Shown here: piece by piece, positions 24,581-63,705 of the stretch | Layout: each line of letters begins with the position of its first letter | Numbering within the stretch: the first letter of the stretch is position 1 | Source of the DNA: Octopus sinensis | Taxonomy: Eukaryota | Assembly: GCF_006345805.1 (NCBI RefSeq) | Contig: NC_043001.1 | Coordinates: 70,184,001 to 70,248,000 of the forward strand | Direction of reading: 5' to 3' | Length of the DNA stretch: 64,000 nt | Notes under the pieces: model-generated | Seen by the model: the letters and a program-made list of their open reading frames with translations, nothing else | What the model was told of the DNA's origin: nothing | Database searches by the model: none | Made by a program: the position numbers and the translations under genes

Positions 24581-25232
24581 ATATTTCTAAGTCTCTCTAA
24601 AGGAGACTAAGTCAGCATTACAGGATATCAATAGTTATCGCCAAGTTAACATTACAGTCCAGGACTATAGGACGAATGCTACCGCTGATTAGCTCCAAGA
24701 GGCCATCGCTTCTAGCAATCTATGTGACATCCAGACCAGCAAGTTGAAGCGGCTGACCCCTCCTGTTCGAAGGTTATAATGGAAACAGGTTCGTGCGTCA
24801 CATAACTAGCTAGAGGCGATGACCTCTTGGAGCTAATCAAGGGCAGCATTCGTCCTATTTTCATGGACTGCCTTGTTAGCTTGGCGATAACTATTAATAT
24901 CCAGTACTGCTGCCATACTCTCCTTTAGAAAGACTTAGAAATATTAATATTTCTATTTTTGAAAACCAGTAGATGTATTCCACTGAATTTAGGTAAATAA
25001 TCCTTCGAACAGACGGTCAGTAGTGACGCCTGCTGAGTTCGGCTGCTCTACATTGATAAGGGGTAAATAGCCCGAAACTAGTCTGTAGATGCTGACCTCC
25101 CCTGTTCGAAAGTTATAATGGACACAGGTTCGTGTGTCACATAGCTAGTTAGAGGCGATGGCTTCTTGGAGCTAACCAACGGCAACATTCGTCCTATTTT
25201 CCTGGACTGCCATGTTAGCTTGGTGGTAACTA
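24581..25232 (+). mobile_element. Non-coding Penelope-type or retrozyme-like unit: inverted arm + partial tandem repeat + hammerhead
   Basis: 24581-24728 is inverted relative to 24797-24944 (about 20 mismatches in 148 bp). 24752-24894 is directly repeated at 25091-25232 (period 339). A hammerhead lies at 25047-25089. Flanked by (TA)n and (CA)n. Confidence 0.8.
25047..25089 (+). ncRNA. Minimal type I hammerhead ribozyme (U3-A8 variant)
   Basis: TCTACA-TTGATAA-GGGGTAAATAGCCC-GAAA-CTAG-TC-TGTAGA: 6-bp stem I, core, stem II GGG/CCC, palindromic minimal stem III, GUC cleavage triplet ending at 25083. Confidence 0.85.
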
Positions 25233-25245
25233 TACACACACACAG

Positions 25246-25335
25246 CGATGTGGCGTCATTCGAAGGCTAAAACAATGCAAACGCATTGTGACCAGCGATG
25301 TGTAGCAATATCTGGTCGGTCACGTGATCACGTGT
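25246..25335 (+). mobile_element. SINE family B, 3' fragment
   Basis: GTGGCGTCATTCGAAGGCTAAAACAATGC...GGTCACGTGATCACGTG matches the tail of 53174-53482. Confidence 0.85.
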
Positions 25336-26107
25336 TATATGTACGCATATAGCTATATGTATGTATTTATATATATATATGTACATATATATATGTTCAT
25401 ATATATATATATGTATGTATGTATTACGAACGTACATATACATACACACACACACAACACAGACATACATCGCGCAAGCACAAACATATATGCTACCACA
25501 CACACACAGTTACGCGAACACATACACAGTTACTCCACACGCTCACACATATACGCAGATTCTGCCACGCGCATACGCACGCGCTACCACACACACACAC
25601 ACGCGCCACTTTATACACTCTACCACATAAACACACACATATGTGCCGACCATTTTCTAACTCTCCAATCCCAGATAGCACAATCTCTTCATTCCTTCTA
25701 CTTCAGAAATGTCACCTCACGTGTACTGTTGGCGATATTTTCCTCCTGTCTTCTTTCTTATTGGACTCTCCTATGTTTCCTCTTTCTGAAGCACGCTACG
25801 CGCGAAACGTAGAACAACTGCTCTCCTATGACTCTGAGCGTCTTATTAACATATTACTTGTACCTCGTCATCATGTTTGTTTCTTCTCTTTTTCTGTCTT
25901 GTAATTGTATGTATGTGTATATATATAATATATATATATATATATATATATATATATATATATATATATATATATATATGTATGTATATATATATATATA
26001 TATGCATATATATATATACACACACATTTAGTTGTATGTATATATATATATATATATATATATATATATATATATATATATATATATATATATATATATA
26101 TATACAC

Positions 26108-26215
26108 TGGCCGGCTCGTTTAACCAGCGAGGTGGCGTCATTCGAAGACTAAAACAATGCGAACGCATTGCGACCAGCGATGTGTAGCAATATCTGGTCA
26201 GTCACGTGATCACGT
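26108..26215 (+). mobile_element. SINE family B, 3' fragment
   Basis: GCTCGTTTAACCAGCGAGGTGGCGTCATTCGAAG...GTCACGTGATCACG. Confidence 0.85.
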
Positions 26216-59764: not shown

Positions 59765-60090
59765 GTGGCACATTGGGCAAGTGTCTTCTACTATAGCCTG
59801 GGGCTGACCAAAGCTTTGTGATTAGATTTGGTAGACGGAAACTGAAGAAGGCATGTCGTATATATATATATATATATTTACGTGTGAGTGTGTGTTTGTC
59901 TATTTCTTATTTGTGTATGTTTGTCTTCCCACTATCGTTTGACAACCGATGCTAGTGTGTTTACGCCCCCGTTATCTAGCTGTTCGGCAAAAAGAGATGG
60001 AGAGTATTAGCACTACGCTTACAAAGAATACGTCCTGGGATCGATTTGTTCGACTAAAGCAGTGATCCAGCATGGCTGCATTTAAATGCC
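59765..60090 (+). mobile_element. SINE family A, lacking tRNA head
   Basis: TTGGGCAAGTGTCTTCTACTATAGCC...TTTGGTAGACGGAAACTGAA...CCAGCATGGCTGCA. Confidence 0.88.
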
Positions 60091-60099
60091 ATCTCCTCT

Positions 60100-61850
60100 A
60101 TAACTGTAAGGTGTTCGATTTTATCTATGATCCCTATGTCAACAAATGATGGGCTATTCAAAAGTGCTGAAAATTGTCTACCTAGCGCTTATGAATAGAA
60201 GCCGTGTCAGTCAAAAACAAATGTCCATTTGCTGTACACACTGGAGCTATTGAAGAAGATTTGGGGCCATATATTTCCTTATCATAAGAGTACAAACACT
60301 TGGCAGCGTTTCTATCAGCTGCATGTTGCGCCCTTTTCACTCTGTCATTCCATTATTCCTGTTTAATTTTCCTTTGAGCAGTCTGCACTTTCCCTTTCAG
60401 CTTTCTGTAAGTTTTGTTTGAGTTGGGGCTTAAGGACAGAGATAGAAGTGTATATCCTAAGTTTTGTTTTTCTAAAAGTAGATCATGAATCTCTGTTGAT
60501 TTGTCTGAGAACCAGTCACTGGACCTCCGTGATTTAAATACAACTGAAGAACTTGCAGCCTGAAATTCTTTTGTTCTGAAATCTTCCCACAGATTGTTTG
60601 GATCAAGATTGATACTTTCTATAGCATTGTGGAATCTTTGCAAGTTGCTTGGTAATTTGAAGTTGGCAACATCTAACTTTTATCGACGTTTAGGCATTAT
60701 CGAAAAATTCATTGTTCCACGCACTAGACGATGGTCCTCTCATGGCCCAAACTCTAGAAACAAATTTCTTATCCTTCTTTCTGATCAAAATATAATCTAC
60801 GAGATACCAGTCCTTTGATCTTGGGTACATCTAGGTGCATATATATGCTTTTCTGCTTAAAGAGAGTGTTGGTAACAACCAGATTATTCTCAGTACACAA
60901 CGTAAAGAAAACTACTCCAGTTTTATTACATTTTCCAATGCCATATCGGCCAGCAACAGGCTATGAAATGTAGCCATCTACAAGTCTTGCGTTGAAATCT
61001 TCCATTATGACCAGCTGGTCAGAAATTTGTACTTTCCTCAATTATTGTATTAGATCATCATAAAAACGTCCTACAATTTGATCAGTATGAGACATGATGG
61101 TGTATAAATACTGATAATGATAAGAAACCTACCTTTTGTCAGTTTCATACGGCATGACGTGGTTAGTTCAGATATACCACTTGGAAAGTATGCAACGGAG
61201 GATACTAATGAATTCTTGAGAGCAAACCCAACACTAGATTCTCTACGCTGACCCTCATGTAGGCTTCACCAGAAGATACTATATCTAGAAGTAGGTTAAT
61301 TTATTTGACCCTCACCAGTGAGACGAGTTTCAGAGGCGCATATAACTAGGGATTATTTTTTAAGCTCACATGCAATACGTGCAGTACACCTTTCTGACCG
61401 CTTGTTGAAATTATCATCTAGAAGTATGCACATTCCAACAGCCAAAATTCAGAGTATGTATGTTTTTTCTTCATCTTGGACACCTGCCGAGCGAGAACTC
61501 TTCCCCTGGCGTTCCCAAGACATTTTTGCCATTTACTGAATCTGTTTCGAACATTTCAGAGTAAGTAGCAAGTGCACTTTAGGTTTGCCCCAACCAATTC
61601 AATGATTTTACTACGATTTAGTGTACAAAAACCTGTGCAGATGAAATATTTTCAGTGCACTACTCCCATCTATTGGCCAAAGAATGCTTTCACCGGTGTG
61701 ATAGGAGAATTGACTTACTCGGGAATTTCCAAAGCCTCAGGTTTTATTTTGGTGATGTCCTTCTCCTAGGTAGATTAACAACTAAGGTTAAAGAGATTTT
61801 ACCTACCCACGAGGTTGGGTACCTTGTGCCAGACGCCTCACCGACACGCA
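60100..61850 (-). mobile_element. RTE-clade LINE 5' part (APE endonuclease region + 5' UTR), decayed
   Basis: Minus: RSERCTARIACEL, SETRLTGEGQ, RRESSVGFAL, LVIMEDFNARL, LVVTNTLF and SSDWFSD. 5' UTR motif CTACCTAGGAGAAGG near 61760. Confidence 0.85.
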
Positions 61851-62214
61851 AACGCTCCATAGAATCATTAAATATCATTTCGGTGCCAGATGCGGACGAA
61901 TTTATACATATGTACATACATAAAAAAGTAAAGGATACGTAATTTAGAAATCTAAATAAAATAAGATTTAAATTTAAATAATGTATATATATATGTATAT
62001 ATGTATGTATGTATGTATGCATGTGTATATATATATATATATATATATATATGCATATGTATATATATATGTATATATATATATATATATACATATATAT
62101 ATATATATATATATATATATGTATATATATATATATATATATATATGTATGTATATATATATATGTATATATAGATACATATATATATGTATATATATAT
62201 ATATATATATATAT

Positions 62215-63705
62215 CCAGAATGATTTGCACCATAATATCAGATACAAACACCCAACACACATGTCTCCAGGAACTCAGAACTACACTCATAAATAGGAAT
62301 TATCCACAACCCCTAATAGACAATACTATCCAACGAGCACCGAAATTAAATATACAAAACCTGAGACAACCAAAACCAAACAACGAAGAAAAATTAAAAA
62401 CCCTACATCTCTACACACAACCCACTTAACAATGAGGCTTTGGCACCATACTCGAAAGCACAGCCCTACTCAAGGGGGACCTAAACATGAACCGAATCTT
62501 CCAAATGTGCACCATCATAAAAAGTAAACGGCAAGCAAAATCATTAAAAAAGATTTTAACCCAGGCTACACTGCACCCAATAACAACCACAAAATCAACA
62601 GTTAGAATATGTGGAAAGTTCAACTGCGGGATCTGTGTCCTCTTAGTAGAATGTTCGGAATACATAATAGAACAAGGCCATCATTTTACCATCAGAACAA
62701 ACTTCACCTGTAATTTACGTGATAACATGCGCAGGGTGCAATAGGCAATGTATTGGCCATACAAAGTACAGACTACGAAAAAGGATGGCAGTGCATAAAT
62801 CGCAAATTAGGAATCCTGAATATAGGAAAATACCTCTCAGAGGCCACATAGACAGATGTGCATCAAATAAATATCCCAAATTCACAACTTTCCCACTTTA
62901 CCAATTCAGTAACAACGTAACTGTCACTCAACGTCATAACAAATAACTCCATTTCATTAGAAAATTCGGACCAAGTCTAAACGCCCTGGACCTGGAACGT
63001 TAAAACCATAAATTGGTTCTCCGAAAAGCAAAATGGAATTCTACAACTCCAGTTCCCACTACCACCACGAGCACTACTACTACTACTACTACTACTACTA
63101 CTACTACTAACTACTACTACTACTTCTACTGCTATTACTATAGCCAATGAACTACTGCTTACTCCAACCACCACAGTCACTACTACTACTACTACTACTA
63201 CTACTACTACTACTACTACTACTACTACTACTACTACTACAACTACTACGACTACTACTACTACGACGACCAACAGTCTTCCAATGCTGCTGTTAACGGT
63301 CACTTCCACTGCTGCTGCTACTACAGCCAATGAACTACTGCTACAACTCTAACCATCACCACCACGATCACTACTGCTACTACGATAAACGGTCACTGCT
63401 ACTACTGCTATTTCGGCCACCGTTCATTTTCACAATTACAGCCAACGAATCTAGTCAACGCACAGGACAGCCATTATGTTCCCCCAACAAAACACCACCA
63501 TGTGGACTCTGTTGAGAGTAGTTAGAAACAATTATGAACATTTTTATTACATTTAACTTTTAAAAATATTTTTGATAGGGTTCGTTTTTTCGAGAAGAAC
63601 CGAAACGTAAAATCTCTAAGAAAACTAAAATTTATTTTATATAGTGGAGTTTTCAAACTTCTTTTTTATAAATATATACCCACTCGTATGCCACCTACAT
63701 ATTTT
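62215..63705 (+). mobile_element. Penelope-like element 3' part (RT tail + GIY-YIG + (CTA)n UTR + terminal repeat)
   Basis: [39 protein letters not shown] and ITCAGCNRQCIGHTKYRLRKRMAVH. Hammerhead motif near the 3' end. TA-flanked. Confidence 0.92.
63568..63613 (+). ncRNA. Minimal hammerhead motif (U3-A8; A9G, so probably impaired)
   Basis: ATTT-TTGATAG-GGTTC-GTTTTTTCGAGAA-GAACC-GAAA-CG-TA-AAAT. Confidence 0.7.

Follow-up and report, generated by a model that had tools for sequence, protein, structure and literature searches.

Minimal type-I hammerhead motifs with a U3-A8 core pair associated with Penelope-like elements in Octopus sinensis

In several natural hammerheads, the C3-G8 pair of the catalytic core is known to covary to U3-A8, and variants of this kind are active in vitro (Perreault et al. 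2011, PMC3088659). The same covariation has been described, with about 1300 matches, in the minimal hammerheads of Penelope-like elements (PLEs) of Schistosoma mansoni, and PLE minimal hammerheads are reported to possess a palindromic helix III and to act as dimers (Cervera & de la Pena 2014, PMC4209133). In one PLE, cleavage is abolished by either of the substitutions C3G and G8C and is partly restored in the double mutant (Frangieh et al. 2024, PMC11167929). Here we have analysed a stretch of 64,000 nucleotides, hereafter the window, from Octopus sinensis (assembly GCF_006345805.1, contig NC_043001.1, positions 70,184,001 to 70,248,000 of the forward strand), together with the repeat families to which four hammerhead-like motifs in it belong in a host genome of 2.72 Gb and about 36% GC. 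We conclude, with a probability of roughly 80%, that all four are copies of a minimal type-I hammerhead motif of PLE 3' tails and their truncated derivatives, with U3-A8 as the majority form. The U3-A8 core in hammerheads, including those of Penelope elements, is already published (2011, 2014), and the value of the present analysis is modest: it confirms that in another large genome Penelope-type U3-A8 hammerheads are the rule and not damaged copies.

An earlier note on this DNA had pointed to cores reading TTGATAA, TTGAAAA, TTGATAG and a degenerate TTGAAAA, and had described the stems around them as dissimilar. Direct reading of the sequence finds all four in the places claimed, and the stems of the motifs, assigned here to families F1 to F4, differ from one another yet still pair. 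The motifs are set out below in window coordinates.

25047-25089, plus strand: F1 hammerhead motif, TCTACA / TTGATAA / helix II / GAAA / A-CTAG-T / C17 / TGTAGA.
25047-25052 with 25084-25089, plus strand: helix I of the F1 motif.
25053-25059, plus strand: core TTGATAA of the F1 motif, with helix II GGG(G)..(G)CCC and GAAA at 25074-25077.
25083, plus strand: C17 of the F1 motif, with helix III A-CTAG-T (palindrome ACTAGT) and a predicted cut at 25083/25084.
51618-51573, minus strand: F2 hammerhead motif, GTTACAG / TTGAAAA / GGTC-loop-GACC / GAAA / A-CCGG-T / A17 / CTGAAAT, with the core at 51611-51605.
51580/51579, minus strand: predicted cut of the F2 motif, which has the palindrome ACCGGT.
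63568-63613, plus strand: F3 hammerhead motif, ATTT / TTGATAG / GGTTC-loop-GAACC / GAAA / A-CG-T / A17, with the core at 63572-63578.
36836-36872, plus strand: F4 degenerate motif, with core TTGAAAA at 36839-36845, a bulged G, GTTGC-AAGAC-GCAAC, GAAA, then AT-T-T.

The anatomy shared by these motifs consists of helix I, a helix II of 4-5 bp, GAAA, a 1-bp helix III closed by a palindromic loop, and a cut site other than G. The letters conserved in hammerheads, namely U4, G5, A6, N7 and A9, G12, A13 and A14, the A15.1-U16.1 pair and a non-G at position 17, are all present in the majority forms of F1-F4, and the set is also complete in the window copies at 25.05 kb and 51.6 kb. At position 9, the F3 copy in the window carries G in place of the A found in most members of its family, and the F4 copy is short of 2 nt in helix I and altered in the 3' strand. 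Judged from these lesions, the copies at 63.6 kb and 36.8 kb are probably inert, and we regard most genomic copies, these two among them, as dead insertions.

The state of the core was assessed at the level of the family. First-look searches of the genome with each motif and its flanks as the query returned 1409 candidates for F1, 119 for F2, 1159 for F3 and 1759 for F4. Among the copies that were fetched and aligned, TTGAnAA, and hence U3-A8, is the majority core in all four families: T-A is found in 37 of 41 copies of F1 (the remainder being two T-G and two C-A), 47 of 47 of F2, 38 of 39 of F3 and 26 of 28 of F4. Pooled, U-A occurs in 148/155 copies and C-G in 0/155, these counts referring to copies that cover the core and being slightly inflated by a few overlapping loci. 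The corresponding repeats in the window are as follows.

24987-25127, plus strand: F1 repeat copy with the motif.
36778-36926, plus strand: F4 repeat copy.
51520-51660, minus strand: 5'-truncated 3' tail of a young Penelope-like element (F2).
62212-63720, plus strand: 5'-truncated Penelope-like element copy (F3), with homology from the ORF to the tail with other loci.

The window F1 copy is without some 22 nt that follow helix I in most copies. About 200 nt upstream of it, at 24731-24783, lies a 53-nt fragment with 85% identity to the F1 tail downstream of the hammerhead. No further hammerhead-bearing copy of the eight families defined in this study is present in the window.

The F2 and F3 hammerheads are located in the 3' tails of Penelope-like retroelements. 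The fuller F2 loci have a common 3-kb interior in which pieces of reverse transcriptase (RT) and GIY-YIG open reading frames (ORFs) lie upstream of the motif and on its strand, in the order RT then GIY-YIG at locus L092. Pfam RVT_1 is matched at 34.7 bits, above the cut-off, in an open frame of 431 aa (L093); the GIY-YIG match at L092 scores 20.3 bits (E 7e-4) and narrowly misses the cut-off of 22.6. The hammerhead follows 727 nt after the ORF remnant on the same strand, about 60 nt before the element end, and linkage of this kind is seen at L092, L036 and L044. From the RT/GIY-YIG interior and the same-strand hammerhead downstream of it, we identify F2 as the 3' tail of a PLE. Copies of F2 often occur as head-to-head pairs, with arms of 266 nt that are 100% complementary at one locus. 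The inverted pairs were considered as a DNA transposon with terminal inverted repeats; this was rejected, as the interior holds RT and GIY-YIG pieces on one strand and the upstream arm is a truncated copy placed head to head. At L091:1475-5466 and L092:1677-6566, the inverted arms of such pairs span 266-624 nt and are 98.6-100% identical, and the interior contains a 159-bp unit repeated four times as well as long CCA/CAT-type simple repeats.

For F3, the association is visible in the window itself, where a GIY-YIG-region ORF remnant at 62214-62964 is followed 607 nt downstream on the same strand by the hammerhead. Across linked loci, which include the window, L073, L079 and L056, this distance is 460-610 nt. 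A genome-wide search with Pfam GIY-YIG (PF01541) gave 5029 candidates and 147 matches above the cut-off, and 30 loci from this search were fetched. A hammerhead-like motif lies no more than 1.5 kb downstream on the same strand in 14 of the 30, all of them T-A and F3-like; a further two carry decayed F3-like motifs and one (L261) an F4-like tail 710 nt downstream of its stop codon. In the C-terminal region, the PLE ORF remnants that accompany F1, F2 and F3 share 50-66% identity. Some of the GIY-YIG matches fall in open frames of 600-883 aa (for example G000:C10:27570372-27570635), and some Penelope-like elements may thus be intact. Elsewhere in the window, the segment 44040-44360 on the minus strand gives a weak protein match to a PLE GIY-YIG-region ORF (27% identity over 108 aa, E 1e-8) and is possibly an old PLE remnant.

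The maintenance of structure was followed in the F1 family, of which 37 copies, about 80% identical over the repeat, were aligned. Standard pairs occupy 92.4% of the pair cells, and sliding the partners lowers pairing to 27-53%. Among the individual pairs, one in helix I is split between A-U (15 copies) and G-C (14), that of 10.1-11.1 is G-U in 18, G-C in 8 and A-U in 7, and the central pair of the palindromic loop III is U-A in 32 and A-U in 2; the covariation score is reached in 1 of 500 shuffles. Every family has a palindrome as its helix III loop, even where the loop has been altered (CTAG or CATG in F1, CATG or CG in F3), the full palindromes being ACTAGT or ACATGT in F1, ACCGGT in F2, ACATGT or ACGT in F3 and AATT in F4. 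Within one molecule helix III amounts to only 1 bp; in the homodimers predicted for F1, F2 and F3, an intermolecular helix III of 6 bp forms, helix II is kept and the dimer is favoured by 5.6 to 6.7 kcal/mol (-5.6 to -6.7 kcal/mol relative to two monomers).

These features suggest how such motifs might work. The U-A pair would take the place of the Watson-Crick C3-G8 pair of the active fold, the source elements having kept a working, or at least a structured, core. The palindromes would build the intermolecular helix III of a dimer, and cleavage of the RNA, after position 17, would require two copies to be joined by their helix III loops. As to the part this would play in the life cycle, processing of the element transcript is the role suggested in the literature, where the matter is not settled. 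Catalysis by the U3-A8 motifs is itself a prediction from sequence. Assembled contigs of four out of 21 public runs, whose kind is only guessed to be RNA, bridge the predicted F2 cut site, and contigs cannot show RNA ends.

A number of points weigh against our reading. Two of the four window copies carry the damage described above, A9 to G in F3 and the loss in helix I of F4. The F2 motif is identical in 36/36 aligned copies and the F2 copies are about 99% identical, so that they carry no information on selection, and the F1 covariation could reflect two subfamilies and hence few events. No motif was found within 1.5 kb at 13 of the 30 fetched GIY-YIG loci, while F1 and F4 are each linked to a PLE ORF at a single locus (for F1, L016, 1 of 30 loci; for F4, L261). 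In a scan of short stretches, the best Rfam match of the F1 motif (Hammerhead_HH9, 15.5 bits, E 0.12) and the sole match of the F2 motif (the same model, 19.7 bits, E 0.0045) align core to core and lie far under the gathering score of 52. Finally, the in vitro activity of the PLE minimal hammerheads described so far is low (PMC4209133), and one PLE needed its own protein for cleavage, which was itself dispensable for in vitro insertion (PMC11167929).

The last of these observations bear on the possibility that the motifs descend from hammerheads but have been kept for something other than catalysis, for example as a folded recognition element in the 3' tail for the RT of the element, the U-A core being dead or nearly so. 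We consider this unlikely. The poor activity of PLE minimal hammerheads in vitro is what it would lead one to expect, and in the one PLE studied hammerhead mutants were without effect on in vitro insertion, and the start of reverse transcription lies inside the tail, at an internal site (PMC11167929). In F2 and F3, moreover, the motif stands at a fixed 60-75 nt before the 3' end. What it does not explain is why four families with different stems should all retain the full set of core letters needed only for catalysis (U4, G5, A6, A9, G12-A14, A15.1-U16.1 and non-G 17). The 3-8 pair is also Watson-Crick in every family seen, and U3-A8 variants have been reported as active in vitro (PMC3088659).

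The wider distribution of letters at positions 3 and 8 was examined in a random sample of 1 Mb drawn from 100 random places in the genome. The strict descriptor used for this purpose specifies N3-TGA-N-N8-A, an optional bulge, a helix II of 4-6 bp, GAAA, a palindromic A..T helix III and non-G 17, and also demands a helix I of at least 3 bp, positions 3 and 8 being left unconstrained. Nine matches were obtained, comprising four C-G, two G-C, two T-A and one T-G. The C-G matches belong to two further families, Fa and Fb, represented in the random 1 Mb by 15 and 12 copies respectively, and the T-G match is a decayed Fa copy. Fa and Fb are abundant short repeats whose minimal hammerheads have the canonical C3-G8 pair, a nucleotide bulged out behind A9 and the palindrome ATAT or ACGT; as loop III of Fa, TA and CG were each seen in one copy, and either is palindromic. 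The two families are several-fold commoner per Mb than the U-A families, and no PLE ORF adjoins any copy of either in the DNA examined. Examples are given below.

L117:7332-7377: Fa/Fb hammerhead copy.
L125 around 4994, minus strand: Fa/Fb hammerhead copy.

Taking all the DNA examined, eight families can be defined by their majority forms: U-A in F1-F4, C-G in Fa, Fb and Fc (with Fc known from one place only) and G-C in Fd, described below. Among them are no families with an unpaired 3-8 majority, and mismatches are confined to scattered copies. Under random matching at these letter frequencies, the probability that all eight families are paired is 4!*3!*1!/8! = 0.0036, a figure to be read in the knowledge that the families are not independent by descent. 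The result supports maintenance of the 3-8 pair. It also bears out, at the level of families, the view of the earlier note that the paired changes reflect retention and not decay: the consensuses of F1-F4 are TTGAnAA and not CTGANGA, and the canonical families show only single-step mismatches and never T-A (C-G in 17 of 21 Fa copies, with three T-G, and in 17 of 18 Fb copies, with one C-A). As U-A is family-wide and canonical families lack T-A, the pair appears to have been inherited from the source elements rather than to have arisen by decay of individual copies. The claim that the U3-A8 change is recurrent fares less well. F1-F4 are all, on our reading, PLE tails; every ORF-linked motif found in the genome is U-A, with no ORF-linked C-G hammerhead among them, so that one inherited switch explains the data equally as well as several.

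An origin of U3-A8 by decay, in which C-to-T and G-to-A transitions hit CUGANGA cores and leave dead relics without maintained pairing, is very improbable. Each of these transitions turns GC into AT in a genome that is AT-rich, and the three T-G copies of Fa and the single C-A copy of Fb show that individual copies do decay along this path. Such a process does not account for a state that is family-wide, with T-A in 0/21 Fa and 0/18 Fb copies and C-G entirely missing from the 155 copies of the U-A families, nor for the retention of G5, G12 and the G-C pairs of helix II; young PLE copies, furthermore, carry the U-A core, and the genome contains PLE ORFs whose open frames reach 883 aa.

Applied to the window, the strict descriptor gives two matches, the F1 and F2 motifs, both T-A, compared with four matches over the 16 combinations of N3 and N8 in 100 dinucleotide shuffles of the window, of which one is T-A. 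The F3 and F4 motifs of the window fail because these copies are damaged; the majority forms of both families pass. Relaxing helix I to 2 bp adds only two matches, AT-rich and T-C, which is the level of shuffled sequence (about 1.7 per Mb in shuffles of the 1-Mb sample). Although that background rate is real, and TTGAnAA and GAAA are frequent words at 36% GC, chance look-alikes in AT-rich repeats are a very unlikely explanation, given two strict matches in the window against four in 100 shuffles, the fixed place and strand of matches behind PLE ORFs and the emergence of Hammerhead_HH9 as top Rfam match for both strict window motifs.

The earlier note had further proposed that standard searches would miss these motifs. 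This is correct in so far as a CUGANGA descriptor misses them by definition and Rfam misses the F1-F4 motifs, its hammerhead models giving no matches in the window at gathering thresholds. The failure is, however, not peculiar to motifs with this core: Fa, whose 3-8 pair is the canonical C3-G8, is missed as well, with no Rfam hammerhead match at E<=10, and the same is true of Fd. The blind spot of Rfam thus concerns the minimal architecture as much as the core. In the random 1 Mb, 13 to 15 of the 40 to 42 hammerhead-bearing repeat copies, about a third, are not CUGANGA, and counts based on Rfam or on CUGANGA therefore fall short in this genome. In a scan of the whole window by E-value, the top 150 of 390 Rfam matches are all look-alikes of microRNAs driven by microsatellites. 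Dense (AC)n, (AT)n and mixed microsatellites (for example at 36669-36741, 62001-62069 and 9744-9826) give rise to hundreds of such sub-threshold matches, which are low-complexity artefacts.

The most unusual by-product of the analysis is the family Fd, to which the two G-C matches of the random 1 Mb belong. It gave 967 first-look candidates, and its copies are 95-100% identical. The motif reads TTTGTCA / GTGAACA / bulged G / GTCGC..GCGAC / GAAA / A-ATAT-T / U17 / TGACAAA, with a helix I of 7 bp, a helix II of 5 bp and the palindrome AATATT. Apart from the 3-8 pair, which is G-C in 63/65 copies, all the conserved hammerhead letters are retained, and the motif is present on both arms of a near-perfect palindrome of 265 bp. 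In 30 loci, no PLE ORF lies within 1.5 kb.

L215:1498-1762: Fd palindromic repeat.
L128:4980-5150: Fd palindromic repeat.
L214-L243: the 30 loci of the Fd palindromic repeat.

Literature searches for a natural G3-C8 hammerhead gave no such example; what they brought up was a laboratory variant (PMC3884650) and the double mutant C3G/G8C mentioned above (PMC11167929). We suggest tentatively, and with rather less than even confidence, that all three Watson-Crick versions of the 3-8 pair exist here as separate abundant families, C-G in short non-autonomous repeats, U-A in ORF-linked Penelope tails and G-C in Fd, the last being a natural case of a swap that the literature otherwise offers only as a double mutant made in the laboratory. 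If this were true, selection would keep the 3-8 pair itself and not its letters; and if Fd cuts, it would offer a natural test case for the weight of 3-8 pair identity in catalysis.

Four kinds of described hammerhead come close to these motifs. The natural U3-A8 variants of PMC3088659 display the same compensatory change of C3-G8; they come from a survey over all domains of life, and the passage describing them gives no host names and makes no link to PLEs. With Rfam Hammerhead_HH9 (RF02275, clan CL00010), helix I, the core, helix II, GAAA, helix III and the cut site of F1 and F2 align position by position, the differences being the U-A core pair and the reduction of helix III to 1 bp. The type-I hammerheads of animal satellites and retrozymes, such as those of newt and the schistosome repeats resembling short interspersed nuclear elements (PMC7229834), are similar in their weak helix III, their palindromic loop and an activity expected only in dimers or tandem transcripts; as described there, they are mostly tandem and C3-G8, whereas the present copies are dispersed or head-to-head and tied to PLE ORFs. 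The PLE minimal hammerheads, including the U3-A8 examples of the S. mansoni element Cercyon (PMC4209133), share with ours the type-I topology, the sense orientation in the terminal repeat or tail of the element, the very short helix III with palindromic loop, the G10.1-C11.1 pair and the replacement of C3-G8 by U3-A8. They likewise form many variable families per genome, with frequent single and head-to-head copies. Beyond the difference of host genome, F1-F3 keep a 1-bp helix III with a loop of 4 nt (or 2 nt) where the published motifs, as described in that paper, have none, and every ORF-linked motif found in the present genome carries U-A.

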